DNA of 64,000 nt from Candidatus Omnitrophota bacterium (GCA_020632515.1 JACKFK010000011.1:1284-65283), one strand, 5' to 3'. Counted from the stretch's first letter, positions 8,496 through 61,974 are shown. Numbers and translations are program-made. Notes: generated by a model not told the origin, from the sequence alone.

Positions 8496-8656
8496 ACGAG
8501 GTAAAGGAGAGATTGGTATGAGTGTCTCCTTAAAGGTGATGAATACTTATTTTACTTAATGCCGATTAAGCATGTGAATGTGGGGTCGAAGTTAGATAAG
8601 AAGGTGTTTGGTTTCAATAATGAAATATATAAAGTAACAGTAAATAATCTGAATAG

Positions 8657-8685
8657 TTGACAGGTGAATGGTTGAGTGGTATACT
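8657..8685 (+). promoter_or_regulatory. Promoter of the MarR-1 operon, with repeated RGTTRA units in the spacer
   Basis: TTGACA (8657-8662), a 17-nt spacer, then TATACT (8680-8685). The spacer reads GGTGAATGGTTGAGTGG, and AATAGTTGA sits immediately upstream. Confidence 0.6.
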
Positions 8686-8706
8686 ATTAAAAAATCAGGA
8701 GAGGCG

Positions 8707-9186
8707 ATGTTTGAATTAGAACAATATGGAATTGGTACAGGTGATAAGAAGAAGCATGAGGAGTTGGTTTACATGACAGCCCTCATCTATAATCTCCTTA
8801 ATAATGACATTACGTCATATCTTACCAAATATAATTTATCCCCTGGAAAGCTGAATATATTGGTTGCCATGCGTCATCATGGAGGCAATCAAGGTCTGGC
8901 ACAGATTGAGATTAGTCGCCATCTTATTGTTACTAAATCTAATATGACCAAGCATCTGGATAAACTTGAGAATGAAGGGATGATTACTCGATCTGCAAGA
9001 CCAGGAGATAAAAGAGTTAAGATTATTAAAATCACTAAAAAGGCAGAAGAATTATTAGATGCAATGTGGGATGAATATAATCAAAGGTTGGAATCGCTGA
9101 CATCGAGATTAAGTAAGGAGAAAAAAATACAATTATCTGAATTACTTTTTGAATGGTTTGGTACGTTAATACCAGGGGATAAATAA
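8707..9186 (+). CDS. MarR-family transcriptional regulator (paralog 1)
   Basis: The winged-HTH core ISRHLIVTKSNMTKHLDKLENEGMITRSARPGDKRVKIIKITKKAEELL is present. The start is moved to the ATG behind the AGGAGAGG RBS, because the ORF-track start lies inside the promoter. Confidence 0.85.
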   Translation: MFELEQYGIGTGDKKKHEELVYMTALIYNLLNNDITSYLTKYNLSPGKLNILVAMRHHGGNQGLAQIEISRHLIVTKSNMTKHLDKLENEGMITRSARPGDKRVKIIKITKKAEELLDAMWDEYNQRLESLTSRLSKEKKIQLSELLFEWFGTLIPGDK

Positions 9187-9187
9187 A

Positions 9188-10177
9188 ATGGTAAAACTTT
9201 TTAACAATTCTAAATATTTAGTTAGCAGTTGGTATGCTTTGATTCCTTCTAAGAAATTAAAAAAAAGAGAAGCTCAATCATTCAAACTTTTTGACAGGAA
9301 AATTGCACTTTATCGAGGTGATGATAACACGGTTAGAGCTCTCAATGCCAGATGCCCTCATTTGGGAACCGATCTAGGTCAAGGGTGTGTTGTTGGAAAT
9401 CAGTTACAATGTGCTTTTCATCACTGGAAGTTTGGTGACGATGGAAGCTGTACGCATATTCCTAATTCGGATGATATTCCTAAATTCGCAAAAACATTTT
9501 CATACCCATGCCAGGAGAAATTTGGTTTTATTTGGATTTTTAATGGAGAAAATCCAACATTCGATTTGCCTACCTTTGAGGAGTGGAAAATGGAGGAGTT
9601 GGAATGCATCGCTTTACCTGCTTCAAAATTAAATTGCCATCCACATCTCATTTCTAGTAATGGATTAGACATTGAACATATGAAAGCATTGCACAACATG
9701 GAATTTGTAGAAGAACCAGAGGTTGAGCAGTTTGATCATTATCGTATTCAAACAAGATTTAAGATTGCTGTTAAAGGTAATGGTTTTCGAGAGCGAATTA
9801 TAAAGGCAACATTAGGAAAAGAAGTTACGTTACATCTAACAACTTGGGGTGGAAACATGGCCGTTGGAGAGGCTATTCATAAAAACAATCCAGTTTTAAT
9901 TATTTTCGCCCATAATCCACAACTAGATGGAACCAGTGCTTGCCGTGGTTTTATTTTTCTTCCTAAACTTAATCGACTTGGTTTAAAAGTAAATTATCTC
10001 AAATTACCTCAAGTATTTGCAGCCTTACATTATATTCTTCATGCTGATCATGAAATATTAAACAATATAGAATTTCATCCTCGTCTTGTTGATAGTGATA
10101 GACCTATAAAACTCTTTATCGATCAAATAAACAAGATGGATTATTTTCCAAGAGAGGGAAGTAAGGAAGCTGTATGA
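9188..10177 (+). CDS. Rieske [2Fe-2S] non-heme-iron oxygenase, alpha-subunit-like
   Basis: Rieske motif C-P-H-x16-C-A-F-H (CPHLGTDL...CAFHHW), plus the mononuclear iron motif D-I-E-H-M-K-A-L-H (D-x2-H-x4-H). Confidence 0.8.
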   Translation: MVKLFNNSKYLVSSWYALIPSKKLKKREAQSFKLFDRKIALYRGDDNTVRALNARCPHLGTDLGQGCVVGNQLQCAFHHWKFGDDGSCTHIPNSDDIPKFAKTFSYPCQEKFGFIWIFNGENPTFDLPTFEEWKMEELECIALPASKLNCHPHLISSNGLDIEHMKALHNMEFVEEPEVEQFDHYRIQTRFKIAVKGNGFRERIIKATLGKEVTLHLTTWGGNMAVGEAIHKNNPVLIIFAHNPQLDGTSACRGFIFLPKLNRLGLKVNYLKLPQVFAALHYILHADHEILNNIEFHPRLVDSDRPIKLFIDQINKMDYFPREGSKEAV

Positions 10178-11538
10178 AAATTGCATTAATGGCACCAGCA
10201 GGTGCAATGCATAGATATAAGGGGAGTTTTGCCAAAGCACTTCATTATTCTCCTTTAACATTAACAACCTTGGCTGCATTAGTCCCACCTGAATTGGATG
10301 CAGAAATTGAAATCTATGATGAGACTGTTGAGTTTCTTCCAAAGAATCCAGATGCAGATTTAATTGGTATGACAGTTATTACAGGAACGAGTCAGCGTGC
10401 GTATGAATGGGCTGGGTACTATAGAAGTTTGGGTAAAACGGTTATTTTAGGGGGAGTTCATCCATCGTTTGTTCCGAATGAAGCTAAAGAACACGCAGAT
10501 GCGGTTGTTGTAGGTGCTGCAGAACAAACTTTTCCAGAGTTATTGATGGATTATAAAAAAGGGCAACTCAAACCATTTTATCATCAAGGCAGTAATTTTA
10601 CACTTGTAGGAAGACCGCAACCACGAAGAGATTTATTAAAAAAAGACAGATATATTACGACGAATACTATTGAAGCGACAAAAGGATGTATACATTCATG
10701 TCGATTTTGTGTAACACCAGCAATGACAGGTCAAAATGTTTCAACTCGACCTGTCAAAGAGGTGATTGCCGAGATTGAACAGTTACCAGGCAAAGAAATG
10801 GTTTTTGTTGATGTCAATTTAATAGCAAATCCTGGGTATGCTAAAGAATTATTTAGGGAGCTCATTCCTTTGAAGAAAATGTGGTTTGGTTTAGTGACTG
10901 TCAATATTGGTAAGAATAAGGAGTTATTTGATTTAATGGTTAAAAGTGGGTGCCGTGGAGTATTAATTGGATTTGAAGCTATCACATCCGATTCACTTAA
11001 AAGTATTGATAAAGGTTTTAATAGAGTCAGTGAATATGAATTGTTGGTCAAGAAATTACATGATGCAGGAATCATTATTAACGGAACTTTTGTACTTGGG
11101 ACGGATGGTGATGATAATTCAGTTTTTTCAAGAACATTTAATATGATCCAAAAACTTAAAATAGATCTACCAAGATTTTCTGTGATGACACCATTTCCAG
11201 GAACACCATTATATCGATCGTTAGAACAAGCAGGACGTATCATTGATCGTAATTGGGCAAATTATGATGTAGAGCATTGTGTTATTCAACCAAATCAAAT
11301 GACACCAGAAGAATTAGAAAAAGGATTAGAGTGGACTTGGAAGCAAACATATAAGTACTCATCAATTCTTCAAAGAATTGCGGGAATTAATTCTAGATTG
11401 ATGTTAAACGTTCCTGTTAATCTCGGTTATCGACAGTATGCCACCAAATTACCAAAGTTTCCTAAAGAAGTCATGATGGATAATTCGGATGTACCATATT
11501 ATGAAAAAAATAACATTTATATACCCAGCAGTAGGTAA
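10174..11538 (+). CDS. B12-binding-domain radical SAM enzyme (class B type)
   Basis: N-terminal Rossmann-like cobalamin-domain pattern (DLIGMTV...VILGGVHPS). Radical SAM cluster motif C-IHS-C-RF-C. ATGA start/stop overlap with the Rieske gene. Confidence 0.8.
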   Translation: MKIALMAPAGAMHRYKGSFAKALHYSPLTLTTLAALVPPELDAEIEIYDETVEFLPKNPDADLIGMTVITGTSQRAYEWAGYYRSLGKTVILGGVHPSFVPNEAKEHADAVVVGAAEQTFPELLMDYKKGQLKPFYHQGSNFTLVGRPQPRRDLLKKDRYITTNTIEATKGCIHSCRFCVTPAMTGQNVSTRPVKEVIAEIEQLPGKEMVFVDVNLIANPGYAKELFRELIPLKKMWFGLVTVNIGKNKELFDLMVKSGCRGVLIGFEAITSDSLKSIDKGFNRVSEYELLVKKLHDAGIIINGTFVLGTDGDDNSVFSRTFNMIQKLKIDLPRFSVMTPFPGTPLYRSLEQAGRIIDRNWANYDVEHCVIQPNQMTPEELEKGLEWTWKQTYKYSSILQRIAGINSRLMLNVPVNLGYRQYATKLPKFPKEVMMDNSDVPYYEKNNIYIPSSR

Positions 11539-12838
11539 AAAGCCAGGCACTAAGTATATTAGGACGTGGAAGATGGAACCTCTACCAATTGCAGCTTTGG
11601 CGTCGTTAACTCCTGATGATATTGAAACGGAATTCTTCGACGATCGATTAGAGCTTATTGATTACGAAACAGAAACGGATTTGGTCGCAATCACAGCGGA
11701 AACATATACTGCTATGAGAGCTTATGATATTGCCGATAAGTTTCGCAAAAGAGGTATTAAAGTAGTATTGGGAGGCTATCATCCAACACATTTACCAGAA
11801 GAGTCTGGAAAATATGCGGATAGTGTTGTCATAGGAAATGCAGAGAGTGTGTGGGAGCAGTTACTTAAAGATGCGAATAACGGTGGGCTTAAAAAAGTAT
11901 ACAAAGGAGTAGTAGGAGAATTCTCTGGATTACCAAATCGTGATATTTTTAAAGGGAAAAATTATGTAAAGCTCGGGTTAGTTGAAACAGGACGTGGGTG
12001 TCCTTTTAAATGTGAGTTTTGTCATATAACAACATATTATAATGCTAAATATTATTCTAGACCAATAAAGGATGTTGTTGAAGATATCAAACGTTCAGGA
12101 AAAAAATTATTCTTTTTTTGTGATGATAATTTTGTGGCTAATCCAAAGTATACAATTGAGTTATGCAAAGAGTTAGTAAAATTAAATATCAAATTTTCTG
12201 GGCAAGGAACCATTACAATGGCAAAAAATAAAGAACTGTTGTATTGGTTGAAAAAGGCTGGATGTGTACTGTTATTGATCGGCTTTGAATCTATGGAAGA
12301 TGAGAATCTAAAAAGAGTCAATAAGGATTGGATGAGTGAAGTTGGAGATCGAGGAGAGTTAGTTGATAATATTCATCGAGCAGGAATCAGTATCTATGCA
12401 ACGTTCATTTTTGGATTAGATCATGATACACAAGATACTTTTAAAAAAGCTATTGATTTTGCCCATGAAAAAGGATTTTATTATACCGCGTTTAATCATT
12501 TATTACCTTTTCCAGAAACGCCATTATACAGGCGGTTAGATAAAGAAAATCGATTGATTAATCGACACTGGTGGCTAGATAGGAATTATAAGTATGGGGA
12601 TATTGCGTATCAACCGATAAATATGACACCCCAGCAATTAACAGAAGGTTGCCTTAGTGCACGAAGAAAGTTTTTCTGTTATTCATCTATATTTAAAAGA
12701 GCTATTCGTCTTTTGAAAAGAAATCCTTCGTTATCGTTTCTTTACGTATTTTTACATTCAAATTTAAATTTAAAAGATGAAGTGGAAGGGAAATATAGTC
12801 TTCCCCTTGGGAGTGGTCTTGATGAATTGCCTAAGTAA
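11501..12838 (+). CDS. B12-binding-domain radical SAM enzyme (paralog of the previous gene)
   Basis: DLVAITA...VVLGGYHPT cobalamin-domain pattern and a C-PFK-C-EF-C cluster motif. Same architecture as 10174-11538. The start is ambiguous (11489 or 11501). Confidence 0.8.
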   Translation: MKKITFIYPAVGKKPGTKYIRTWKMEPLPIAALASLTPDDIETEFFDDRLELIDYETETDLVAITAETYTAMRAYDIADKFRKRGIKVVLGGYHPTHLPEESGKYADSVVIGNAESVWEQLLKDANNGGLKKVYKGVVGEFSGLPNRDIFKGKNYVKLGLVETGRGCPFKCEFCHITTYYNAKYYSRPIKDVVEDIKRSGKKLFFFCDDNFVANPKYTIELCKELVKLNIKFSGQGTITMAKNKELLYWLKKAGCVLLLIGFESMEDENLKRVNKDWMSEVGDRGELVDNIHRAGISIYATFIFGLDHDTQDTFKKAIDFAHEKGFYYTAFNHLLPFPETPLYRRLDKENRLINRHWWLDRNYKYGDIAYQPINMTPQQLTEGCLSARRKFFCYSSIFKRAIRLLKRNPSLSFLYVFLHSNLNLKDEVEGKYSLPLGSGLDELPK

Positions 12839-13931
12839 CAGATTTATAATAGAACCTGCTAAAGCATCAGATGGTCTTGAAATGCTTCAGTTATTAGAGC
12901 AAACGCCTTTTGAGGGCAAGGTGTCGTTATTATATACACGTCGACCAGATGCCTATCAATCTTTTCTATATGAGGGAAGAAATATGGAAGTATCTGTTTG
13001 CAGAGATCTTCAAGAAGGAAAGATTATTGCTATAGGGGCATATGTTATTCAAGTTGTTTATATCAACAATAAAGAGGAGCAGGTGGCGTATATATTTGGA
13101 TTGAAAGGGTATTCTGATTATTTAAAGTCACATCCTTTGTTGCATAGGTTTTATGCCTATCTGGAGGAGAATCTTAAAAGGAATAATATACGGTTTTGTT
13201 ATACGACTATTTTGGAAAGTAACCATTATGCACAAAGGTTATTGGAAAAGAAGAGAAGAATTATGCCACATTATGAAAAATTTGGGAGGTATGAAACATT
13301 TGCAATAAGGAATACATCAAGAAGAAAGAAACATAACGGTTATGTCTTTACGAAAGCCTCTAAAGAAGATCTTCCAGAAATGGTTCGATTCTTGAATCAA
13401 GAAGGATCTAAGTGTCAGTTCTTTCCTGTAGTTAAATTAGACGATATTTTAAGTGAAACATTTAAAGGGATAAATACTGATAGTTTTTATATTGTTAAGC
13501 AAGATGACAAAATTATAGCTGCGGGTGCTATTTGGGATCAGGGAGATTATAAACAATATATTGTTCAGCAATACTCAGGTTTCTTAAGAATCTTTAATAA
13601 GTTGCAACTATTGTCTGCACTATTTCAAATACCGTCTCTTCCTGATCCAGGACAAGCATTAAAATTTTATACATTGTCTCGCTGGGCTATTAAAGATAAT
13701 GATAAAACGATCTTCAATGTTTTCATGGATAATTTGAAAGATCATACCCAAGATTATCCATTTATGCTCATTGGAGTTCATGAAAGTCATCCTTTGAGAA
13801 ATGAGTTAATGAATCGTAAGCATATAAAATATAGTAGCAATGTCTATCTTGTTGATTGGGTTAAGAAGATAAGTCCCCTAACATTACTTAATACAGAGAT
13901 GTCATCTTATATTGAATGCGGAGCCTTATGA
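12822..13931 (+). CDS. Hypothetical protein, acyltransferase-like (tentative GNAT/FemAB-like fold)
   Basis: About 370 aa in two halves. Only the N-terminal half shows an acetyltransferase-like sequence segment (IIAIGAYVIQVVYINNKEE...AYIFGLKG). No named motif is recognised. The start is ambiguous (12777 or 12822). Confidence 0.35.
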   Translation: MNCLSNRFIIEPAKASDGLEMLQLLEQTPFEGKVSLLYTRRPDAYQSFLYEGRNMEVSVCRDLQEGKIIAIGAYVIQVVYINNKEEQVAYIFGLKGYSDYLKSHPLLHRFYAYLEENLKRNNIRFCYTTILESNHYAQRLLEKKRRIMPHYEKFGRYETFAIRNTSRRKKHNGYVFTKASKEDLPEMVRFLNQEGSKCQFFPVVKLDDILSETFKGINTDSFYIVKQDDKIIAAGAIWDQGDYKQYIVQQYSGFLRIFNKLQLLSALFQIPSLPDPGQALKFYTLSRWAIKDNDKTIFNVFMDNLKDHTQDYPFMLIGVHESHPLRNELMNRKHIKYSSNVYLVDWVKKISPLTLLNTEMSSYIECGAL

Positions 13932-14647
13932 TGCTGAGTAATCGAATAGTAAGAATTTATGAACTATCGCAATCTGAAATTGAGGTGATGTATCAATTGA
14001 TGAAGCAATATTACGATAATATTTTTCGAGATAAGTTTCTAAAGGATTTAAAAGAGAAGGAAGGCGTGCTCTTGGTACTTGATGGAAATCAAAATATATG
14101 TGGTTTCACGACGTATGATCTGTATCAAACAAATTTTCAGAACGAATGCATTAATGTTTTATATTCAGGAGATACGGTCATCAGGAAAGAATATTGGGGG
14201 CAAGTGAATACCAGTAAAATGTTTATGTCTTTGTTAATGAAGTGTAAAGAGGAATGCAATGGATTGTTATTCTGGTTTTTGATCACTAAAGGAATTCGAA
14301 CGTATCGTCTCCTACCGTTGTTTTTCAAAAATTACTATCCCAGTTATCACGTCGCTACACCCGAATATGAAAAAAATATCATTAAACATTTAGCAAGGTT
14401 GCAGTTTAAAGAATACTACATAATGGCTGAAGGAGTTATTCGGTTTGAAAAGGGAAGTGATTGTCTTAAAAATGAATTCTGCCATATAGATAAAAATAAG
14501 AAAATAAATCCACACATACAATATTTTCTCAAGGTTAATCCTGGGTATATTTCTGGTGACAATCTCCCGTGTATTGCCGAGATTGATTTAGATAATTTTA
14601 CTAATAGGGCTCTTAAGTTTATAGATAACGTTGTTGTTAAGGTTTAA
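13928..14647 (+). CDS. Hypothetical protein, possibly an acyltransferase
   Basis: The ATGA overlap with the upstream stop supports co-translation. Sequence ICGFTTYDLY...YSGDTVIRKEYWGQ...LITKGIRTYRLL. I cannot assign a family by eye. Confidence 0.3.
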   Translation: MMLSNRIVRIYELSQSEIEVMYQLMKQYYDNIFRDKFLKDLKEKEGVLLVLDGNQNICGFTTYDLYQTNFQNECINVLYSGDTVIRKEYWGQVNTSKMFMSLLMKCKEECNGLLFWFLITKGIRTYRLLPLFFKNYYPSYHVATPEYEKNIIKHLARLQFKEYYIMAEGVIRFEKGSDCLKNEFCHIDKNKKINPHIQYFLKVNPGYISGDNLPCIAEIDLDNFTNRALKFIDNVVVKV

Positions 14648-14649
14648 TT

Positions 14650-16260
14650 ATGAAGATAAATAGTCTAATGATAAATAAATTATGGCACATGAGTTGTATG
14701 CCTAAATATAAGTATTTCTTAACTAACATGGAGTATGCACGGAATGAACAAATAAAAATTCTATTAGAATTGATTAGGAAAAATGAAGACACTGTCTTTG
14801 GTAGAGAGCATAAATTTAAAGAAATAAACAATTATGATATGTATCAAAAGAATATACCTCTCATGAACTCTGATGAATATTTACCCTTTATGGATAAAAT
14901 TAGGAATGGTGAGAATAGCGTATTAACAAAAGAGAACGTTTTTTTATTAGAGCCTACAGGTGGTAGTAGTGGTGGAACAAAGCTTATTCCGTATACTTCT
15001 TCTTTGAGGAGAGAGTTTTTATTAGCTATCTGTCCGTGGGTGGTAAATATGATGAATAATTATCCAGGTCTTATGAAAGGGAGAAGTTATTGGACGATAA
15101 CACCTAAAATATCTAAAGAGGACGATGGAGAGAGTGAGATTCCAATCGGCTTTGATGATGATTTCGAATATTTTGGATCAATAGGAAAAATTCTTAGATT
15201 TAATTCTGTTATACCAAGCAAAATTAACGAATTGACTGAAATAAATCGTTTTAAACACATCACATCTTGTTGTTTATTATCTGCGAATGATCTCTCCTTT
15301 ATTTCCATCTGGAATCCATCGTTATTTTCTTTGTTCATAGATCATATTGAAAATTCAACACCTCAGCTCATAAAGGATATTCATGATGGAATAAAGGGTT
15401 TTGTTGAGTCTTCTCCTCAAAGAGCGAAAGAGATTGAAGAGTGTATGAAGTTAGACTTTTCACAGCGATATGAAGCCATTTGGAAGGAGCTATCTCTAAT
15501 TTCTTGTTGGATGGATGGAGCATCGAGCGTCCATGCTAACAGGTTGAAAGATTGTTTTCCTAATGTTCAATTTCAGAATAAAGGCTTATTAGCAACTGAA
15601 GGAGTTATTACAATTCCCTGGAAGGAATCTGGAGGAAACGTACCAGCTTATACATCTCACTTTTTTGAGTTTATTAATAAAAGTGGTTCTTTTAAATTGA
15701 TTGATGAGTTAAAAGAGCAAGAAGAATATACTGTTGTTATTACTACTGGATCTGGATTGTATCGGTATAATATGGGAGATAGGGTGAAAGTTGAGAGTTT
15801 TTATAATGGTTTACCTGTTCTTAAATTTATTGGGCGAGAAAAGCTATCAGATTTGGTAGGAGAGAAATTAGACGATGTATTTGTTTCACGGGCGATAGAG
15901 AATACAATAAAGGAAATGGGCATTGAAAGTGATTTCGTAATGTTAGCTCCTGAGATTAAGAGCAATGGAGGTCAGTATATTTTGTATATTCATTTAAACG
16001 GAAATAGTGAAAAATATAATTTATTGGATCTTAGAAGTAAATTGGAATTACGTTTGATGGATAATTTTCATTATAGACATGCTTTGGAGGTAGAGCAGTT
16101 AACACCTCTAAAGATATTCTTGATCAATAATGATGCTAAAAATGTTTATACTAATCGGTGTATTAGCGAAGGACAAAAATTAGGTGATGTAAAGTCTGCC
16201 TATTTAGATAATCGCCATGGATGGATAGATTATTTTCAAGGGGAGTTATTAAATATATAA
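14650..16260 (+). CDS. GH3-family acyl-acid amido synthetase (adenylating enzyme)
   Basis: LEPTGGSSGGTKLIPYT (GH3 nucleotide-binding motif) and GLYRYNMGDRVKV (GH3 motif 3-like). The length (536 aa) is typical of the family. Confidence 0.75.
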   Translation: MKINSLMINKLWHMSCMPKYKYFLTNMEYARNEQIKILLELIRKNEDTVFGREHKFKEINNYDMYQKNIPLMNSDEYLPFMDKIRNGENSVLTKENVFLLEPTGGSSGGTKLIPYTSSLRREFLLAICPWVVNMMNNYPGLMKGRSYWTITPKISKEDDGESEIPIGFDDDFEYFGSIGKILRFNSVIPSKINELTEINRFKHITSCCLLSANDLSFISIWNPSLFSLFIDHIENSTPQLIKDIHDGIKGFVESSPQRAKEIEECMKLDFSQRYEAIWKELSLISCWMDGASSVHANRLKDCFPNVQFQNKGLLATEGVITIPWKESGGNVPAYTSHFFEFINKSGSFKLIDELKEQEEYTVVITTGSGLYRYNMGDRVKVESFYNGLPVLKFIGREKLSDLVGEKLDDVFVSRAIENTIKEMGIESDFVMLAPEIKSNGGQYILYIHLNGNSEKYNLLDLRSKLELRLMDNFHYRHALEVEQLTPLKIFLINNDAKNVYTNRCISEGQKLGDVKSAYLDNRHGWIDYFQGELLNI

Positions 16261-16298
16261 TAAGTTTATCGTTGTAACCTTAACCAAGGGAGGAAGTG

Positions 16299-16913: not shown

Positions 16914-16921
16914 GTTATGCC

Positions 16922-18080: not shown

Positions 18081-18089
18081 TTAAAAGCA

Positions 18090-18371: not shown

Positions 18372-18376
18372 TAATT

Positions 18377-53542: not shown

Positions 53543-54862
53543 ATGTTTTTCCATAAACCGAAGCATGTTATTTTTCTTATTCATGGAATCGGCGGCGATA
53601 AGACCCATTTTGGGTATATGTCCAAAGCCTTACCTAAGATTTTGAATGAAAAAGATCCGTCGACTAAATATCTTGTAAAAAGTATTGAATATGATACAGG
53701 TCATGATGAGAAAACGCCGTATGAATTTGCTCAAGATATTAATTTAGTCATTCAAAGAACAACAGCCTCGGGGAAGTTTCGAAAAGAAGATAAGATTTCG
53801 CTGATTATGCATTCTCAAGGAGGTTTGGTGGGTGCAATCTGGGTCATGCAGTCATTGATGGGATCGCCGGGGTATAGTTCGCCAGCGACGATTAAACATC
53901 TAAATGCCTTTATTACTTTAGGAGCGCCGTTTTGGGGGGCCAAGACAGCGCAATGGGGCAGTGAGATTAAGGCCTTAACAAATCGTTTAGGCGTAAAGGT
54001 GGCTTTACCTTATGGGAAGAGGGAATTGGAGCAGATGTCTTTTGGGAGTGACTTGATTTTTGATTTTCGTATGGCCATGATTGATCCACAGTATCAGCCG
54101 TATATTAACCATTTGCGGGAGAATGTCAGATTCTTAAATATTGTCGGTGTCGCTGACTTATTAAATCCTTTAGGGATTTTTGTTTCCGGATCTGATAAGT
54201 ACGAAGACGATGGTGCAGTTCCATTAGCCAGCGCACGTTTTAATTTTTTGTATATTCAATCTTTGAAAAATAGTTATGACGATGATGATCTCGTCTTATT
54301 AGAAGAAGTTCGTGAGGTTGATATGGCTCCTTATGTGGTGGTCAACGCGATGCATCGTTCGCCTTTGCCGGAATTGGAAAATTTTGCGGGAATTGCGCAG
54401 ATTCCGAAAAAATGTATTAGAGATAAAAATTGTCTTCATCCAACCTTTCCTTATTTGTGGAATCATATTTTAGGGAACCCCGTTCAGCAGTTGGATCGGA
54501 ATTTGGGAGATTTCAAAACGTTTTTATTAGATTTAAATATTCGAATTGAAGCGGAGCAATATTATCATTGCAATGATATTCATCTTGATTTTCGTGATTT
54601 AGACGGAAAGCCGATTAATCAATCAAATATTGAAATAAAGAAGTTTTTTGAATTTTATGCTCATGGTAAGAAAAATTCGCAGAAATATCCTAATCATTGT
54701 CGATTTTATTTCACTGGAACAATTAAGCGGGTATTGCCAGGGCGAGATGAGGCTGTACGAATTAAGATTTTTGCCAAAGGGCTTAAGACAAGAGTTGTTG
54801 AAATGAAGTTGAGGGAAAGTTATTCTTCTTTTGTCGACGTTAATTTGATTCCGGCAAAGTAA
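53543..54862 (+). CDS. Alpha/beta-hydrolase lipase/esterase
   Basis: The AGGAG RBS lies before MFFHKPKHVIFLIHGIGGD. The nucleophile elbow is IMHSQGG. The ORF-track N-terminal extension is rejected. Confidence 0.65.
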   Translation: MFFHKPKHVIFLIHGIGGDKTHFGYMSKALPKILNEKDPSTKYLVKSIEYDTGHDEKTPYEFAQDINLVIQRTTASGKFRKEDKISLIMHSQGGLVGAIWVMQSLMGSPGYSSPATIKHLNAFITLGAPFWGAKTAQWGSEIKALTNRLGVKVALPYGKRELEQMSFGSDLIFDFRMAMIDPQYQPYINHLRENVRFLNIVGVADLLNPLGIFVSGSDKYEDDGAVPLASARFNFLYIQSLKNSYDDDDLVLLEEVREVDMAPYVVVNAMHRSPLPELENFAGIAQIPKKCIRDKNCLHPTFPYLWNHILGNPVQQLDRNLGDFKTFLLDLNIRIEAEQYYHCNDIHLDFRDLDGKPINQSNIEIKKFFEFYAHGKKNSQKYPNHCRFYFTGTIKRVLPGRDEAVRIKIFAKGLKTRVVEMKLRESYSSFVDVNLIPAK

Positions 54863-54872
54863 ATTACTCAAT

Positions 54873-54897
54873 ACAAATTCCAAGAGTATTTGTTTTT
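54873..54897 (+). terminator. Weak AT-rich terminator-like hairpin
   Basis: ACAAAT-TCCAAGAGT-ATTTGT followed by TTTT. Confidence 0.35.
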
Positions 54898-54942
54898 ATC
54901 TTATTTTATTGGTATGATGTCTCTCCAAAAAGGAGTGTGTGT

Positions 54943-55656
54943 ATGCTAAATCTAATTAATGGCGGTATTCAGCATTCAAACATTTTTCTGCATATGCCTT
55001 TATTTGATGAAATTTTTTATGAAGGTTATTTAGAAGGAAAGGTTCGAAAATATAAAGCTGTCCGTGAAGATCAGTCTTGTCGGTTTCTTGTATTGAATGT
55101 TATTCGTAAGGACGAATGTATAATCTGGGATGCGGTGCAAGATTTTCTCAAACGCAGTGTCATTGAGGCTGCGGTAAAAGTTCGAGGGGTATATGTTTTT
55201 GATTTATTGACAGTGGATATTCATAAGGAAATTAATACGTTTAATCTGAATGAATTGACAACAGTTATGATTAATCATTCACAAAAATGTCAGCCGGGGC
55301 AGCAGCGTTTAGTTAAATATTCATCAGTTTACGGATTGCTGCAAAAGATGGTTCATGAAGATTGGGGGAAGATTTCTCTAAAGACATCAGTTGAAGTTTT
55401 TAAAGATAAGCCGGTGTTTTTAGATTTGCTGGTAAAGCAGCTTATTAAAAATTTTGAATTTTCTCATGATCCAGGTATTTTGTTGTTAAATGATTTAAGT
55501 CAAAGTCCTCTATTTGATCCGCAGGATGCTCTGCAGCAAGAGCGCCTTCATAAAATGATTGAAGCGCAGATTCCAAAAGCGATTGAATTCCCTCCGGAAG
55601 TCTACATCCAAGATAAAAATGGGGTGCGGGAATTGTTGTCGCAAACAGTTATTTAG
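54943..55656 (+). CDS. Hypothetical protein
   Basis: 237-aa ORF with an AAAGGAG RBS. No motif recognised. Confidence 0.5.
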   Translation: MLNLINGGIQHSNIFLHMPLFDEIFYEGYLEGKVRKYKAVREDQSCRFLVLNVIRKDECIIWDAVQDFLKRSVIEAAVKVRGVYVFDLLTVDIHKEINTFNLNELTTVMINHSQKCQPGQQRLVKYSSVYGLLQKMVHEDWGKISLKTSVEVFKDKPVFLDLLVKQLIKNFEFSHDPGILLLNDLSQSPLFDPQDALQQERLHKMIEAQIPKAIEFPPEVYIQDKNGVRELLSQTVI

Positions 55657-55735: not shown

Positions 55736-55764
55736 TTGACATATCAAATTTTGATATGTTAATC
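55736..55764 (+). promoter_or_regulatory. Promoter of MarR-3 overlapped by a perfect 10-1-10 palindrome
   Basis: TTGACA (55736-55741). ACATATCAAA-T-TTTGATATGT (55739-55759) fills the spacer. A weak -10, TTAATC, follows. Confidence 0.6.
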
Positions 55765-55774
55765 TTATATTAAG

Positions 55775-56284
55775 ATGGAAAAAGTAAAGAGAATGAAAAA
55801 TTTTTATTTAGACACGGTCAAAGGGCGGCCCAGTGCGGAAGCATTTAATGGGATGCTTTGTGTCTATTCGCTATTACAGAGAAAGATGGATGAATACTTC
55901 AAACCGTATTCTTTAACACCGGTGAAATTTAATGCTTTGATGTTGATTAAGCATTTAGGTGAATCAGAAGGGATGAGTCAGAACGAAATTTGCCATCATC
56001 TTATTGTAAGTCCGTCCAATATTACTCGCTTGATTGACCGCTTAATTGCTGATGGTCTTGTTCAACGGATTGTTTCGGAAAAAGATAGAAGGATCAAGTT
56101 GATCAAAATTACAGCTAAAGGAGATGAGATTTTAAATCAGCTTTTTCATGGGTATGGTGAAATGATTCAGAAGTCCGTATATGTTTTAGAGCGGTCAGAG
56201 GTGGAAGATTTGGCGCGCTTACTCTTAAAATGGTTTATAAAGTTAAATGAAAATTCATTAAGCAAGGATGGTGGACATGAATAA
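55775..56284 (+). CDS. MarR-family transcriptional regulator (paralog 3)
   Basis: ICHHLIVSPSNITRLIDRLIADGLVQRIVSEKDRRIKLIKITAKGDEIL shows the same subfamily pattern as paralogs 1 and 2. Confidence 0.8.
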   Translation: MEKVKRMKNFYLDTVKGRPSAEAFNGMLCVYSLLQRKMDEYFKPYSLTPVKFNALMLIKHLGESEGMSQNEICHHLIVSPSNITRLIDRLIADGLVQRIVSEKDRRIKLIKITAKGDEILNQLFHGYGEMIQKSVYVLERSEVEDLARLLLKWFIKLNENSLSKDGGHE

Positions 56285-56627
56285 TAAATGGAATAAATTA
56301 GCGATGGTGGTGAGTCTGGGGATGTCTGTGTTTATGGTTGGGCTGGTTATTGTTACATCGTTACAAAGCAATTTGCTTGAGGCTCTTCCTCGGTTAAATC
56401 AAGAACCTTGGTTTGTTACAACAATTGTTGATTTTTATTTTAATATAGCTCTTATTTCATTTTGGATTTTGTATAAAGAGAAAAGTCCTTTTATCGCGCT
56501 GATCTGGATTTTTTCATTTATTTGTTTAGGTAGTATTACAACAGCTTTTTATGTTTTTCTTCAGTTTTTCAAAATGCGTAATGAAAAATCTTGCAATAGA
56601 GTTTTGTTGCGTGAAGGGAGCCTATGA
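56277..56627 (+). CDS. Small four-TM membrane protein
   Basis: Hydrophobic spans LAMVVSLGMSVFMVGLVIV, FVTTIVDFYFNIALISFWIL, FIALIWIFSFICLGSITTAFYVFL. Overlaps both neighbouring genes. Confidence 0.5.
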   Translation: MNNKWNKLAMVVSLGMSVFMVGLVIVTSLQSNLLEALPRLNQEPWFVTTIVDFYFNIALISFWILYKEKSPFIALIWIFSFICLGSITTAFYVFLQFFKMRNEKSCNRVLLREGSL

Positions 56628-57421
56628 TGTTTGAACTTGTTGCGTCCATGGTTTTAACAGGGGCGTTGAGTGTTATTGTGTTATTTTTTATTTTATGGAT
56701 TATTCATATTTTTCTCAATAACGCCGGAGTTGTCGATGTAGGGTGGGGGATGGGGTTTATTATTTTATCGGGGATTTATTCGTGGATGGGGCAAGGATTC
56801 AATTTCCGTAACACATTGTATTTTATTTTGGTAAGTTTGTGGGGCTTACGAATTGTCTTTTTTTTACTCAAGCGTTTAGTTAAAGAGGGTTATGAAGATC
56901 GCCGTTATCAAAAGATTCGTAAGGATTGGGGCGGTAATATGACTTTGAAGTTTTTTTTCTTTTTCGAATTTCAAGCTCTGCTTGAGGTGATTCTGGCCGT
57001 GCCGTTTCTTATCGTGAGTCTTAATCCATCAGATAATTTTACTATTATGGAATTTTTAGGATCTTTTATCTTTATCGGAGCGTTGTTAGGAGAGACGATA
57101 GCAGATGAACAGTTGCAGCGCTTCAAATCTGATGCTCGTAACAAAGGAAAAGTTTGTGATGTTGGATTGTGGCGTTTTTCACGTCATCCGAATTATTTTT
57201 TTGAATGGCTGATTTGGGTTGGATTTTTTATCTTTGCTTTAGGAAGTTCAATGGGGTGGTTGGGAATTATTAGTCCGGTGATTATGTATTATCTATTGAA
57301 TTATGTAAGTGGAGTTCCTTTAGCTGAAGAGCAGTCATTGCAGTCTCGAGGAGATGCTTATCGTCAATATCAGAAAAGAACAAGCGTGTTCTTTCCAATG
57401 CCGCCAAAGGAAAATATATGA
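56624..57421 (+). CDS. DUF1295 (steroid 5-alpha-reductase/ICMT-like) membrane protein
   Basis: GLWRFSRHPNYFFEWLIWVGFF is the family signature. ATGA overlaps at both ends. Confidence 0.75.
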   Translation: MMFELVASMVLTGALSVIVLFFILWIIHIFLNNAGVVDVGWGMGFIILSGIYSWMGQGFNFRNTLYFILVSLWGLRIVFFLLKRLVKEGYEDRRYQKIRKDWGGNMTLKFFFFFEFQALLEVILAVPFLIVSLNPSDNFTIMEFLGSFIFIGALLGETIADEQLQRFKSDARNKGKVCDVGLWRFSRHPNYFFEWLIWVGFFIFALGSSMGWLGIISPVIMYYLLNYVSGVPLAEEQSLQSRGDAYRQYQKRTSVFFPMPPKENI

Positions 57422-58467
57422 AGAAATTTTTAAATTTGTCCCAAAAGTTATTGGAAAAAGGGCTTATTCCCGATCCTTTGATTCGTATGGGGATTCGTGG
57501 ATTGTTAAGGGAAAAGCTAGAAGAAGAAAAAAAGGTTCTCAACAAATTAGGCGAAAAACGAAAGTATGATTTGATTGAACAGTTAAAAAATTCTCCAATT
57601 GCTGTCAATACGCAAGATGCAAATCAACAACATTATGAACTGCCGACCGAATTCTTTCAATTGATCATGGGGTCGAATATGAAATACAGTTGTGGCTATT
57701 GGAAAGACGGAGTAAATGATTTTAATCAGTCGGAAGCGGATATGCTGCAATTGACACTTGAGCGTAGTGAAATTCAAAATGGACAGAGTATTTTAGAGTT
57801 AGGCTGTGGATGGGGATCGTTGACGTTATTTATGGCTGAACATTTTCCTGAAAACAAAATTGTTGCTGTCTCAAATTCGCGGACACAAAAACAGTTTATT
57901 GATAGTCAAGCATGCCAGCGCGGGTTGAAAAATATTCGTGTTATTACGGCAGACATGAATACATTTTTCATTGACGAAAAGTTTGACCGTATTGTTTCAG
58001 TAGAAATGTTTGAACATATGCGTAATTACAGCCAACTTTTGAAAAAACTTTCCGAATTTATTAAGGAAGATGGGAAATTATTTATTCATATTTTCACACA
58101 TCGGGAGTTTGCGTATTTATATGATGAAAAAGATGAATCTGATTGGATCGCTAAATACTTTTTTACAGGCGGGATTATGCCATCGGATGATCTTTTACTA
58201 TCGTTTCAAGATGATTTCGAGATTGAAGAGCAGTGGCAGGTTAATGGAAAACATTATCAAAGAACATCGGAAGCATGGTTGTCAAATATGGATAAAAACA
58301 AAAATAAAATTATACCGATTTTAACGAAGACGTATGGAGAGAATCAATGTAAGAAGTGGTGGATGTATTGGAGAGTTTTTTTTATGTCTTGCGCGGAATT
58401 ATGGGGATATAAAAATGGAACGGAATGGATTGTTAGTCATTATCGTTTTAGAAAAAGGATTAGTTAA
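57418..58467 (+). CDS. Cyclopropane/mycolic-acid-synthase-family SAM-dependent methyltransferase
   Basis: HYELPTEFFQLIMGSNMKYSCGYW and the SAM motif ILELGCGWGSLTLFMAE. Confidence 0.8.
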   Translation: MKKFLNLSQKLLEKGLIPDPLIRMGIRGLLREKLEEEKKVLNKLGEKRKYDLIEQLKNSPIAVNTQDANQQHYELPTEFFQLIMGSNMKYSCGYWKDGVNDFNQSEADMLQLTLERSEIQNGQSILELGCGWGSLTLFMAEHFPENKIVAVSNSRTQKQFIDSQACQRGLKNIRVITADMNTFFIDEKFDRIVSVEMFEHMRNYSQLLKKLSEFIKEDGKLFIHIFTHREFAYLYDEKDESDWIAKYFFTGGIMPSDDLLLSFQDDFEIEEQWQVNGKHYQRTSEAWLSNMDKNKNKIIPILTKTYGENQCKKWWMYWRVFFMSCAELWGYKNGTEWIVSHYRFRKRIS

Positions 58468-59717
58468 TGCAGAAAATTGCAATCATTGGAACTGGTATTG
58501 CCGGTATGGGCGCTGGGTATTTTCTTAAAGATAAATTTGATATTACTTTTTTTGAAAAAAATAGTTATCCCGGTGGGCATACAAATACATTAAGTGTTGA
58601 CGAGGAGGGGGAGCCTATATATATCGATTCGGCCTTTATGGTTTACAACGAAATTACGTATCCTAATTTAGTCAGGTTATTTAACGAATTGGATGTAAAG
58701 ACTAAGCCAACAGATATGTCCTTTAGCGTTCAACACTTACCTAGTGGGTTGGAATATTGCGGAACAGGGCTCAATGGGCTCTTCGCACAAAGAAGGAATT
58801 TATTTAATGTCAATCATTGGAAGATGCTTTTGGAGATGGATCGATTTAATAAAGAATCTTTAGAAGTATTAGAGGGGGATCAATTTTTAACTTATTCGTT
58901 GAGTGATTATGTTAAAGAGAAAAATTATAGTGAAGATTTTTTTCATAAATTTCTTATTCCAATCAGTTCAGCTGTTTGGTCAACCCCGCCTGATTTGATG
59001 TTAGAATTCTCTGTTGTTACACTGGTGCGTTTCTTTAAAAATCATGGTTTTTTAGGGTTGCATGGGCATTATCAATGGAGAACCGTTGTCGATGGTAGTC
59101 AAAGGTACCGGGATAAAATTCTTCAGTTTTTCAAAGGTAAGATTTTGTTGAATCAATCTCTTAAGACGGTTATCCGTCAGGAAAATAAAGTTATTTTGGT
59201 GGATAAACAAGGTCGGAAACAAGAATTTGATAAAGTGATAATGGCTTGTCATGCTGATCAAGCATTAGCGTTATTAGAGCGTCCGACGATTTTAGAAAAA
59301 GGATTGTTGGAGAAATATAAATATCACCGCAATCGTGCGACGTTACATACAGATGAAACAGTTATGCCAAAAACTCGTTTGGCTTGGTCATCTTGGAATT
59401 ATCGAATCAATGACCGTTATCCAGCGACAATTTATTGGATGAATAACCTGCAGCATGTATCAAAGAGAAATAATTATTTTGTTTCAATTAATGATGATGG
59501 AGTTGTTAACTCCTCTAAGATTTTATGGGATTCGGAATATACTCATCCAATTTTTGATGTTGCCGCTATTAAAGAGCAGCCACGACTACCTTCATTAAAT
59601 AATACTGGGCCGATTTATTTTTGTGGTGCTTATTTTAAATATGGTTTTCATGAAGATGCTTTGACGTCAGGGTTGCAGGTAGCCAGAGTGATTTCAGGGG
59701 AAAATTTATGGGATTGA
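58467..59717 (+). CDS. FAD-dependent oxidoreductase (amine-oxidase/phytoene-desaturase-like)
   Basis: N-terminal dinucleotide fold KIAIIGTGIAGMGAGYFL...FEKNSYPGGH. Confidence 0.75.
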   Translation: MQKIAIIGTGIAGMGAGYFLKDKFDITFFEKNSYPGGHTNTLSVDEEGEPIYIDSAFMVYNEITYPNLVRLFNELDVKTKPTDMSFSVQHLPSGLEYCGTGLNGLFAQRRNLFNVNHWKMLLEMDRFNKESLEVLEGDQFLTYSLSDYVKEKNYSEDFFHKFLIPISSAVWSTPPDLMLEFSVVTLVRFFKNHGFLGLHGHYQWRTVVDGSQRYRDKILQFFKGKILLNQSLKTVIRQENKVILVDKQGRKQEFDKVIMACHADQALALLERPTILEKGLLEKYKYHRNRATLHTDETVMPKTRLAWSSWNYRINDRYPATIYWMNNLQHVSKRNNYFVSINDDGVVNSSKILWDSEYTHPIFDVAAIKEQPRLPSLNNTGPIYFCGAYFKYGFHEDALTSGLQVARVISGENLWD

Positions 59718-60493
59718 ATTCATGCCTTTATGAAACGCTTGTTATGCATTGCCGGATTCGGCCTAAACGATATCGGTTTGTGCATAAAATCTTTATGTTT
59801 TATTTAGACTTGGATGAGTTGAATGTTATTACAAAAAATATTTTTCTGATTAGTCACAATAAAAGGAATATTTATAATTTTAGGGATAAGGATCATTTTG
59901 ATTTAGATGGGAAAAATATTAAGGAGAAAGTTATTGCCTTCCTGCAATCAAAGGGAGTTTATTTTAATAAAGGCAAGATTATGCTTTTAACGAATTTACG
60001 GACATTCGGATATTTGTTTAATCCTGTTTCATTTTACTTTTGTTTTGACGAAAGAGATGTTCCTATTTGTGTTATTCCGGAGATTGGTAATACTTTCGGC
60101 GAAATAAAACCTTTTTTGATTGATTCTGCTTCATTCCATAATGGAAAATTTGTTAGTCAACAAAAGAAATTTTTTTATATTTCGCCTTTTATTGATCTGG
60201 ATATTCCGTTAGATTTTCAATTACATGTTCCTGATGACCGGTTGAATATTCAAATTGATGATTTTGATAAGGAGGGAAAATTTTTATATGCAACTATGTC
60301 AGGAAAAAGAAAAGAATTGAATAATAGAAATTTATTTTGGCATACTATGAGATATCCGTTTATAACATTGAAAGTTATTGTTTTAATTCATTATCATGCT
60401 CTTCGTCTTTGGATGAAAAAAGTACCGTATAATGAAAAGACAAACAATTCTCATTTACAAAGGGAGGTTTATCGTGGATGGAATAAAAATTAA
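59708..60493 (+). CDS. DUF1365 family protein
   Basis: LYETLVMHCRIRPKRYRFVHKIFMFYLDLDEL matches the DUF1365 N-terminal pattern (G.V.H.R..P..H.F.Y.vf...lDLdel). Confidence 0.7.
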   Translation: MGLNSCLYETLVMHCRIRPKRYRFVHKIFMFYLDLDELNVITKNIFLISHNKRNIYNFRDKDHFDLDGKNIKEKVIAFLQSKGVYFNKGKIMLLTNLRTFGYLFNPVSFYFCFDERDVPICVIPEIGNTFGEIKPFLIDSASFHNGKFVSQQKKFFYISPFIDLDIPLDFQLHVPDDRLNIQIDDFDKEGKFLYATMSGKRKELNNRNLFWHTMRYPFITLKVIVLIHYHALRLWMKKVPYNEKTNNSHLQREVYRGWNKN

Positions 60494-61739
60494 ACAAAAA
60501 GATTCTATTCATATAAAAAAAAATAAGTTAAATCTTTATCAGAAGATTATTGATTATGTATTTCGACCTATGCGTTTGGGCCGTCTCACGATGCGTTTGC
60601 CTGATGGGAGGTTTTTAATTTATGGCAATGGTAAAGATGGGGTTGAAGCAGAAATTACAATACGGAACAATAATTTTTTTAAGAAATGTGTTTTTTTTGG
60701 AGATGTTGGATTTGGTGAGTCTTATGTTGATGGAGATTGGGACACCGAAGATATTACAAAGGTGATTGAATGGATGATTATCAATGTAGAACATCATCCA
60801 ACATTGATGTCAGATAAGAAAAAACGAGCGCCCGTTAATTGGTTAAAGGTAATTAATAATTTGATTAGTCTTGTCCGGAAAAATTCTCTCAATGGTAGTC
60901 GTAAGAATATTTATGAACATTATGATTTAGGAAATGATTTCTTCAAGCTGTTTCTGGATCCTTCTATGACATATTCATCAGCTTATTTTAAAAATGAACA
61001 GATGTCGCTTGAACAGGCACAATATCAGAAGTACGAACAGTTTTGTCAGAAAATCCGTTTAAGACATACGGATCATTTGTTAGAGATTGGTAGTGGTTGG
61101 GGTGGTTTTGCGATGTATGCGGTCAAAAATTTTGGTTGTCAGGTAACAACAATAACAGTTTCTAAAGAACAGCATGATTTTGTGGAGAAAAGAATTAAAG
61201 AGGAGGGTTTAGTGGATAAGATTAATGTTAAGCTTACAGATTACCGAAAGATCAAAGGAGTATATGATAAAATTGTTTCTATTGAAATGTTGGAGGCTGT
61301 CGGTCATGAATATTATGAAGAATATTTTCGGCAATGTCATAATCTTTTAAAGAAAGATGGAATAATGGCATTGCAGGTAATTTTATCACCGGATAATCGT
61401 TATGAAAGTTTTCGTAAAAATGTTGACTGGATTGAGAAACATATTTTTCCAGGGAGTTTATTGCCATCCACAGCGGTTCTGCTTAAAAATGTAAACAAAT
61501 CAGGGGATTTAGGTCTGTTCGATTTTGAGGATATAACACCTCACTATGTAAAGACGTTAGATTTATGGTGCCGGAATTTTAATCAGCAATTAGCGTCAAT
61601 TAAAGCTATGCGCTTTGATGAATCTTTTATTCGTCAATGGAATTATTATTGGTGTTATTGTAAAGCTGCTTTTCAAACGCGTAATATTAGTGTGGCGCAA
61701 ATGGTTTTCAGCCGGCCGAATAATTTAACACTTTCATAG
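60432..61739 (+). CDS. cfa: Cyclopropane-fatty-acyl-phospholipid synthase family methyltransferase
   Basis: HYDLGNDFFKLFLDPSMTYSSAYF, SAM motif LLEIGSGWGGFAMYA, and IEMLEAVGHEY. The start is uncertain (ATG 60432, or a GTG near 60473). Confidence 0.8.
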   Translation: MKRQTILIYKGRFIVDGIKIKQKDSIHIKKNKLNLYQKIIDYVFRPMRLGRLTMRLPDGRFLIYGNGKDGVEAEITIRNNNFFKKCVFFGDVGFGESYVDGDWDTEDITKVIEWMIINVEHHPTLMSDKKKRAPVNWLKVINNLISLVRKNSLNGSRKNIYEHYDLGNDFFKLFLDPSMTYSSAYFKNEQMSLEQAQYQKYEQFCQKIRLRHTDHLLEIGSGWGGFAMYAVKNFGCQVTTITVSKEQHDFVEKRIKEEGLVDKINVKLTDYRKIKGVYDKIVSIEMLEAVGHEYYEEYFRQCHNLLKKDGIMALQVILSPDNRYESFRKNVDWIEKHIFPGSLLPSTAVLLKNVNKSGDLGLFDFEDITPHYVKTLDLWCRNFNQQLASIKAMRFDESFIRQWNYYWCYCKAAFQTRNISVAQMVFSRPNNLTLS

Positions 61740-61789
61740 GTTATTTTAAAAAAAATCTTGACAATTAGTTTAATTAGTTATATTTTGGA

Positions 61790-61884
61790 ACTTAAATAAG
61801 TTTATAGTTAACTTATTTAAATGAGCGGCACGAGATCAGATGAATCCAAAGCCCAATTCTTTTTGTAATGAGTTGGGTTTTTTA
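61790..61884 (+). ncRNA. Candidate small RNA A (promoter at 61758, two hairpins, intrinsic terminator)
   Basis: TTGACA at 61758-61763, with TATATT or TATTTT 15-17 nt downstream. Hairpin TTAAATAAGTT...AACTTATTTAA. Terminator CCCAATTC-loop-GAGTTGGG followed by TTTTTTATTT. No ORF. Confidence 0.45.
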
Positions 61885-61974
61885 TTTAAACGGATTTTGA
61901 TAAAGGCTTGAAAGCCTATATTTTTCAATAGTTTAAATGGTTGAATAGTTGCTTAGTATTAGGATTCAACTATA

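Follow-up and report, generated by a model that had tools for sequence, protein, structure and literature searches.

Conserved promoter-operator modules predicted for three MarR-family regulators heading membrane-lipid operons in a Candidatus Omnitrophota bacterium

Three MarR-family regulator genes, named here MarR-1, MarR-2 and MarR-3, were analysed in a 64,000-nt stretch of DNA (hereafter the window; GCA_020632515.1, JACKFK010000011.1:1284-65283) from a metagenome-assembled genome (MAG) of Candidatus Omnitrophota (Omnitrophica). As a whole, the comparison with related loci lends good support to a real and strongly conserved promoter-operator system, belonging to a previously uncharacterised MarR subfamily whose members head membrane-lipid operons. 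The three regulators are probably self-regulating repressors, released by a ligand, that act on conserved operator units at the head of these operons. Such a mechanism, that of a self-controlled repressor, is conventional; it is newly defined for this bacterial group.

All three genes lie on the plus strand: MarR-1 at 8707-9186 (159 amino acids (aa); Pfam MarR match of 43.5 bits; an AGGAG ribosome-binding site 5' of the start), MarR-2 at 49546-50010 (154 aa) and MarR-3 at 55775-56284, the last with an open reading frame (ORF) of 169 aa, the database protein starting at 55793 and counting 163 aa. Their proteins matched Pfam families PF01047 (43-46 bits; cut-off 24.6) and PF12802 (37-44.5 bits; cut-off 27), and could be aligned over a common core, HLIV[TS]xSN[MI]T...D[KR]R, spanning the recognition helix and the wing; they are thus paralogues with a common core, as a first-pass annotation made from the window alone had described them. 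MarR-1 and MarR-2 share 53% identity, and MarR-3 is 31% identical to MarR-1. MarR-2 is 100% identical to a protein of a Ca. Omnitrophica MAG annotated as a MarR family regulator, and MarR-3 is 100% identical to the 163-aa protein P0121, also from a Ca. Omnitrophica MAG. The AlphaFold model of MarR-2 (pLDDT 84) has the MarR fold, with its helices and two wing strands (E93-98 and E101-109), in keeping with the six-helix, beta-hairpin-wing design, and superimposes with TM-scores of 0.78-0.80 on the MftR-DNA complex 8ylg, on apo and mutant forms of ST1710, and on 3bja. The subfamily is small, since out of 1.84 billion cluster representatives no more than 15 match at E <= 1e-30, and it occurs essentially in Omnitrophota, with relatives in Melainabacteria.

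The MarR-2 promoter provides the core of the evidence. It is near-consensus, the best sigma-70-like match in its region, and consists of a -35 hexamer TTGACA (49497-49502), a 17-bp spacer and a -10 hexamer TAAACT (49520-49525) preceded by TG. A scan of one genome per species gave 76 loci encoding MarR-1/2 relatives (designated below by L numbers), 44 of them in Omnitrophota, where the encoded proteins share 42-74% identity with MarR-2. The module TTGACA-AGTTAATAGTTGAATGG-TAAACT was found 16-79 nt (mostly 20-33) 5' of the marR start in 42 of these 44 loci, the conserved block of 29-31 bp being TTGACAAGTTAATAGTTGAATGGTAAACT, and the MarR-2 module itself (TTGACAAGTTAATAGTTGAATGGTAAACTTT; 49497-49527, plus strand) equals the consensus of the 42 homologous promoters. 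The DNA flanking the module on both sides is unalignable across the Omnitrophota loci, and the information profile is sharply bounded by positions 1 and 31. Within the spacer, A12, T16, T17, G18 and G23 are invariant or nearly so, and none of these bases is required by a sigma-70 promoter.

The MarR-1 promoter carries a diverged copy of the same module (TTGACAGGTGAATGGTTGAGTGGTATACTAT; 8657-8687, plus strand), differing at five positions and again forming the top sigma-70-like match, with the -35 TTGACA at 8657-8662, a 17-bp spacer, and TG before the -10 TATACT at 8680-8685. Scored with a full 29-bp matrix, the MarR-2 promoter reaches 46.5 bits, which is the maximum, and the MarR-1 promoter 32.3 bits. 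Three of the five differences (G7, G20 and the TATACT -10) are common to L022 and L024, orthologues defined by synteny, the MarR-1-type operator variants being GG at positions 7-8, GAGT and TATACT. The array of RGTTRA units that had been reported at the MarR-1 promoter corresponds to this diverged copy of the MarR-2 module; its unit is better described as the 12-bp core TTRA-N4-TYAA discussed below.

The starting observation of the first-pass annotation was a 15-mer, TAATAGTTGAATGGT, occurring identically in the MarR-2 promoter and before the gene that follows marR. Both copies are indeed exact: the first (49506-49520) lies within the 17-bp spacer of the MarR-2 promoter, and the second (50023-50037) in the 53-bp gap before the gene for an LplT-PlsC-Aas fusion protein. 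Identity of the 15-mer was dropped as sufficient evidence, as the window holds about 14 non-tandem exact pairs of at least 15 nt, against about six in shuffled sequences. Since an exact pair is not rare, the significance of the motif rests on its position and on its conservation across genomes.

The second copy belongs to a site here called O2 (50012-50044, plus strand), made of a T-run at 50012-50018 and a 20-mer, ATAGTTGAATGGTTAACATT, at 50025-50044 with the core TTGAATGGTTAA at 50029-50040. It is situated 13 nt 3' of the marR stop and about 20 nt 5' of the next start. Besides the window, 24 of the 44 Omnitrophota loci show the same arrangement after the marR stop, namely a run of six to eight T, about seven variable bases and then ATAGTTGAATGGTTAACTAT. 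Several of these sites are clean inverted repeats with a free centre (ATAGTTAActaaTTAACTAT in L004, ATAGTTAAacgcTTAACTAT in L005 and ATAGTTGACCGGTTAACTAT in L025), and such symmetric arms around a variable centre would be the signature of dimer binding. The T-run sits where a -35 hexamer would be, so O2 can be read as a further promoter module whose -35 is degenerate. As the tail of a terminator, the T-run was rejected, no consistent hairpin being found in the 40 nt upstream (25 sequences folded, mean z -0.45).

A matrix built solely from the O2 sites of other genomes (maximum 29.4 bits) gave exactly four sites of at least 15 bits in the window, against 0.23 in shuffles: 8653-8672 (18.7 bits) and 8668-8687 (17.5 bits) at the MarR-1 promoter, 49508-49527 (25.3 bits) at the MarR-2 promoter, and O2 itself from 50025 (27.2 bits). 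Over approximately 780 kb of related loci, 121 of the 134 matches fall within 200 bp of marR, a zone that makes up 8% of the DNA. The motif is thus no common dispersed repeat in the available sequence, and its description as an operator-like element tied to these marR genes is borne out by its conservation at marR promoters and just after marR in dozens of genomes. High-scoring O2-type sites away from marR were observed in L001 (7132-7151, 25.5 bits) and L020 (9138-9157, 29.0 bits), each just 5' of a small related ORF (66-84 aa, cluster C17) whose product may also belong to the regulon.

The proposed operator unit consists of the 12 bp TTRA-N4-TYAA as core and of AT-rich arms on either side (in the MarR-1/2 dialect, ATAG...CTAT), a short symmetric element that each regulator would bind as a dimer. 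Each marR promoter would then hold two units 15 bp apart: 8657-8668 and 8672-8683 for MarR-1, 49497-49508 and 49512-49523 for MarR-2, and 55736-55747 and 55751-55762 for MarR-3, where both are exact matches to TTRA-N4-TYAA. In this arrangement, unit 1 opens with the -35 hexamer TTGACA as its first six bases, and the -10 (TAAACT, TATACT or TAATCT) starts within the last bases of unit 2. The predicted operators, as defined by their sequence and cross-genome conservation, are therefore palindromic or pseudo-palindromic and lie over the -35 and -10 elements of the regulator's own gene. A first parse, a 21-bp pseudo-palindrome ACAAGTTAA-TAG-TTGAATGGT centred in the spacer, was dropped given the single, variable-centre O2 sites. 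Single R-type units are also present after marR in L036 (TTGATATATCAA) and L037 (TTGATATGTCAA); the 12-bp unit is therefore favoured, and the 21-bp palindrome would represent the junction of two units. The motif can also be written as GTTRAY-like units phased by about 7 bp.

At the MarR-3 promoter, the module (TTGACATATCAAATTTTGATATGTTAATCT; 55736-55765, plus strand) has its -35 at 55736-55741 and a -10-like TAATCT at 55760-55765. It includes the palindrome ACATATCAAATTTTGATATGT (55739-55759), with perfect 10-bp arms and one central base, which had been taken as private to MarR-3. The palindrome is perfect as claimed, but it is not private. A metagenome scan for MarR-3 relatives provided 10 loci, a number sufficient for conservation and not for statistics, and the module is kept upstream of the homologues in L077 and L079-L084 (L086 repeats the L081 sequence), following the design TTGACATATCAA-ATA-TTGATATGTTAA and then the remainder of the -10-like hexamer. 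Four distant MarR-1/2-like loci (L036, L037, L043 and L049) bridge the MarR-1/2 and MarR-3 dialects. On these comparisons, the palindrome is the MarR-3 version of one promoter-operator architecture common to all three regulators. MarR-3 differs in another respect: of 94 MarR-3 homologues, 84 have a Cys in the N-terminal helix alpha-1, at residue 23 in the 163-aa protein, and 57 have a second one (residue 67), whereas no conserved Cys was found in the MarR-1/2 family. MarR-3 may thus be a thiol-based sensor.

The operator dialect changes together with the recognition helix. Helices of the SNMTK... type pair with GTTAA-type units, and those of the SN[MI]TR... type, found in the MarR-3 family and in L036, L037, L043 and L049, pair with (A/G)TCAA-type units (12/14 vs. 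2/44; Fisher test, 8.5e-9, with no correction for phylogeny). Within the MarR-1/2 group, the helix is near-invariant. In the Melainabacteria/Gastranaerophilales loci (L044-L073), the module, with a TTGAAT -35, is placed directly 3' of marR as promoter for the gene behind it; the genes that follow it there encode small unknown proteins and then gyrA, or a patatin, or a DUF2339 protein. The adjacent MarR is the binder to which the data point, because of the helix covariation, the Melainabacterial placement of the module and its restriction to marR neighbourhoods.

The three operons, all on the plus strand, had been assigned to lipid chemistry in the first-pass annotation, and their gene contents are those described; synteny in related loci keeps the regulators tied to membrane-lipid genes. 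The MarR-2 operon (50064-55656) comprises the LplT-PlsC-Aas fusion (50064-53462; 1132 aa, with major facilitator superfamily (MFS), PlsC and AMP-binding, i.e. acyl-[acyl carrier protein (ACP)] synthetase, domains), a DUF676 serine esterase (53447-54862) and a 239-aa unknown protein (54937-55656), the assignments being from Pfam. The fusion matches NCBIfam NF006386, acyl-[ACP]--phospholipid O-acyltransferase, with 1352.6 bits (cut-off 1221) over model positions 4-1144 of 1147. In Omnitrophota, 17 loci keep its pairing with the regulator, and alpha/beta hydrolase genes or a C92 amidase gene often stand between the two; patatin genes recur as well. The MarR-3 operon (56268-61739), by Pfam and NCBIfam matches, encodes DUF1475-like and DUF1295 proteins, a CMAS methyltransferase, an amine-oxidase-family flavoprotein, a DUF1365 protein and a CMAS/cyclopropane-fatty-acid (CFA)-synthase-like protein. 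The DUF1295/CMAS/DUF1365 set stands, in varying order, behind every MarR-3 homologue with downstream DNA (L077-L084). By domains and adjacency, the operon has the features of a UfaD/UfaO system, the DUF1365 (UfaO) gene lying by an amine-oxidase-family (UfaD-like) gene and being accompanied by a UfaM-like S-adenosylmethionine (SAM) methylase, from which we infer membership of a furan-fatty-acid pathway. The MarR-1 operon (9188-17857) has Pfam matches to a Rieske protein, two B12-binding radical SAM enzymes, two unknown proteins (384 and 243 aa), a GH3-family adenylating enzyme, a SnoaL/DUF4440 protein and a fatty-acid desaturase. The order of marR, the two radical SAM genes and the two unknown genes is kept in L022, L024, L036 and L037, with GH3 next in the three loci that extend that far. 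Its lipid assignment is weak, being drawn from lipid-flavoured NCBIfam similarities that are all far below cut-off.

If the regulators act as proposed, a dimer bound at a marR promoter would cover both contact elements of RNA polymerase and so repress its own operon, repression being indicated by the overlap of the units with both promoter hexamers. O2, a single further unit between marR and the fusion gene in the MarR-2 locus, most likely gives MarR-2 separate control of the structural genes, either by acting on a weak internal promoter or by adding a further block. A signal releasing the protein would turn the respective lipid operon on, leading to lysophospholipid re-acylation and esterase activity in the case of MarR-2, to expression of the radical-SAM/GH3/desaturase cluster in that of MarR-1, and, for MarR-3, to expression of a UfaD/UfaO-type cluster resembling that of furan-fatty-acid synthesis. 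Considering the gene context, a lipid ligand is plausible for these MarRs; a lipid-derived amphiphile would be our guess for MarR-1 and MarR-2, and the signal of MarR-3 is possibly thiol oxidation, which is likewise a guess.

Several points weigh against this interpretation. The whole case is comparative, and within the source genome the scanning covered the 64 kb of the window. Because GTTAAC is self-complementary, the letters can be parsed as a pair of 12-bp units, as a 20-bp palindrome that spans the -10, as the 21-bp palindrome of MarR-3 or as direct repeats, and these parses are not rigorously separable. The conservation of T21 and G22 could reflect an extended -10 element instead of operator bases, and the covariation between helix and operator may stem from just two or three evolutionary events. 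As for O2, its role as a promoter is doubtful, because its -10 is poor (TTAACA/TAACAT) and because in some loci the site is too near the ribosome-binding site for a normal leader. Finally, MarR-1, MarR-2 and MarR-3 are all below every curated NCBIfam equivalog cut-off (FabT, OhrR, SlyA, MarR, BilQ and others) and have therefore no characterised orthologue; PDB sequence searches also gave no named one.

Among the other explanations, the one that fares best is the network suggested in the first-pass annotation, in which the three MarRs sense lipid ligands such as fatty acids and lysolipids and cross-regulate one another through shared operators for membrane remodelling. It is in line with the near-identical recognition helices and related operators of MarR-1 and MarR-2, and with the regulated genes, which are mostly enzymes of phospholipid turnover. 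The presence of multiple paralogues with the same module in one genome, in OY759724.1 as well as in other MAGs with two or three, also speaks for it. Yet the MarR-1 orthologues of the window, L022 and L024 retain operator variants of their own, and these conserved differences argue for partial insulation. The MarR-3 dialect and helix are clearly different, which suggests insulation rather than cross-talk, and the conserved Cys of MarR-3, absent from MarR-1/2, hints at a different kind of signal. The fourth node proposed at 61927 also fails (see below). Cross-regulation between MarR-1 and MarR-2 is possible and is not indicated by these data, and we consider the network as formulated rather unlikely.

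The subfamily has two to three paralogues per genome in OY759724.1 (L026, L030 and L037), JAIORP01 (L017, L025 and L036), CAYYRJ01 (L014 and L020) and others. Most of these same-genome paralogues carry the promoter module, and it seems that Omnitrophota have as a rule multiplied these regulators while keeping a common operator code.

The module might also be bound by some other factor, or the MarR proteins might act as activators or anti-silencers, as do some members of the family that activate or counter-silence (SlyA/RovA). O2 has no good -35, which is typical of activator-dependent promoters. At the marR promoters, however, the units overlap the two hexamers, -35 and -10, of a near-consensus promoter, as is classical for a repressor, and the co-occurrence and covariation of the motif with the adjacent marR in two phyla point to the cognate protein. 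This makes either variant improbable, and a repressor acting at its own promoter is preferred.

That the module is a mere strong promoter of the housekeeping type, kept for expression and bound by no MarR, with the second 15-mer as a chance or duplicated remnant, has very little probability in our view. The modules of MarR-1 and MarR-2 are the best sigma-70-like matches of their regions, with TG before the -10, and exact repeats of a 15-mer are no rarity in the window. Against this, near-invariance over 42 genomes extends to spacer bases not read by polymerase, and 24 loci keep O2, its arms symmetric and its centre variable, even though TTGACA is replaced by a T-run. Moreover, the matrix matches are confined to marR neighbourhoods and the operator dialect shifts along with the recognition helix. 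Action of O2 in the RNA of a marR-fusion co-transcript (processing, translation control or termination) instead of as a DNA operator is equally remote: its location between the marR stop and the next start and the U-run preceding it on the transcript would fit, but no hairpin is found ahead of the T-run in 25 sequences, no Rfam family matches O2, its sequence is that of a marR-promoter DNA element lying upstream of the transcription start, and its conservation, with arms kept and centre free, follows the logic of a DNA palindrome.

Of the systems already known, one close in layout to the MarR-1/2/3 repressor-operator arrangement proposed here is MepR of the Staphylococcus aureus mepRAB operon, also an autoregulated MarR protein encoded first in its operon, with operators both at its own promoter and before a downstream structural gene. 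MepR operators consist of short GTTAG-type signature repeats, and the number of dimers bound differs between the two sites. The MepR-DNA structure 4lln is among the fold matches of MarR-2, but identity is about 21%, and the systems differ in the operator, TTRA-N4-TYAA here, and in the targets, which are lipid enzymes and not a MATE efflux pump. FabT of streptococci and enterococci is a MarR repressor of membrane-lipid genes that has acyl-ACP as co-regulator and binds a palindrome in its own operon's promoters, and it resembles the present regulators in family, in the association with membrane-lipid genes and in the own-operon promoter palindrome. Orthology to FabT was rejected (NF050133 at 27.2, 39.5 and 41.6 bits against a cut-off of 200; PDB 6jbx at E ~1e-5), and the targets are genes of lipid repair and modification, not fab genes. 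With the thiol-sensing MarR regulators of the OhrR/MgrA type, the likeness concerns the overlap of operator and promoter and, for MarR-3 only, the helix alpha-1 Cys; the MarR-3 operon resembles one that protects membranes against oxidative damage. The three MarRs scored 20-33 bits with the OhrR model NF052638 (cut-off 200), by which membership was rejected, and OhrR was not among the best 60 of 68 PDB sequence matches; the MarR-3 Cys is at most a candidate counterpart of the OhrR sensing Cys. MhqR (2-MHQ and catechol resistance regulon repressor), the label given by JGI to some homologues, was likewise rejected (S. aureus MhqR, PDB 9qdr, E 3.5e-6, 17% identity), and the regulated genes are not those of quinone detoxification.

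The furan fatty acid operon of Rhodobacter is controlled by sigma-E/ChrR. From its genes, the MarR-3 operon would be the gene set for bacterial furan fatty acid synthesis, placed under a MarR and not under sigma-E/ChrR. Like RSP1091-1087 of Rhodobacter sphaeroides (ufaD-ufaO...), it combines adjacent UfaD-like and DUF1365 genes with CFA-synthase-like methyltransferases; unlike it, it is headed by a MarR. DUF1365 is the UfaO family, UfaD and UfaO make furan fatty acids in Rhodobacter, with UfaD encoded immediately 5' of UfaO in the operon, and deletion of chrR raises fatty-acid accumulation (PMC7380195). The fusion of the MarR-2 operon has the domains encoded by E. coli lplT-aas, i.e. an MFS flippase, a PlsC-type acyltransferase and an acyl-ACP synthetase, but all three are in one 1132-aa protein, with a dedicated MarR ahead. 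Fused LplT-Aas genes have been mentioned as uncharacterised (PMC11416262). In the literature searched, no MarR regulator of lplT-aas was seen described, and nothing relevant was found on the operator motif or on MarR regulators of Omnitrophota.

The first-pass annotation had placed a fourth array of the motif at 61927-61951 (plus strand), next to a small-RNA candidate. It was rejected as an operator: its score is below 9 bits with the O2 matrix and about 13 bits with a spacer matrix, for which 1.7 such matches are expected per shuffled window, it has neither promoter geometry nor a TTRA-N4-TYAA unit, and the intergenic region gave no significant match in the other loci compared. Between the convergent genes of this region, two short units with terminator-like ends were observed (61758-61885 and approximately 61900-62055), the first with a promoter TTGACA-N17-TATTTT at 61758-61786. 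Neither had a significant match in the loci compared, and no Rfam family covers them or O2 (whole window, with a permissive search over 61700-62100).

Elsewhere in the window, an exact 23-bp direct repeat, GGACAATATACGGACAATGGAAT, was found at 5911-5933 and 17862-17884, about 12 kb apart. The two copies enclose a helix-turn-helix + Panacea (SocA-like) antitoxin-type gene (6219-7013), unknown ORFs and the whole MarR-1 cluster, and HipB/HipA genes are present past the second copy (18054-19586); the repeats may mark an island boundary or an attachment-site duplication. The only Rfam match of the window is a cyclic di-GMP-I riboswitch (RF01051; 38654-38797, plus strand; 46.5 bits, gathering score 35), located 5' of an ORF (38953-40872) with 33-bp tandem coding repeats at approximately 39084-39400.

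The view of MarR regulators as such is unchanged by these results. What they provide is a sharply defined operator and regulon, open to testing, for a MarR subfamily not characterised before and from a phylum in which experimental genetics hardly exists; promoter elements, operator units and target genes can be read from sequence in dozens of MAGs. The compact repressor/operator pairs, in two dialects, would be testable in a heterologous host. Two lipid systems about whose control little is known, fused LplT-Aas lysophospholipid re-acylation and UfaD/UfaO-type fatty-acid modification, are also connected to a dedicated regulator. A broader, speculative and unlikely proposal is that Omnitrophota, together with Melainabacteria, manage membrane-lipid homeostasis through an expanded set of MarR sensors using one code, TTRA-N4-TYAA. 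In such a scheme, regulators of the MarR-2 type would respond to lysophospholipid or free fatty acid by inducing the fused LplT-PlsC-Aas repair enzyme and lipases, the MarR-3 type would be a thiol sensor of lipid peroxidation inducing furan-fatty-acid synthesis, and paralogues with near-identical recognition helices would cross-bind one another's operators. If true, the lysophospholipid repair cycle would thereby gain its first described dedicated transcriptional sensor.

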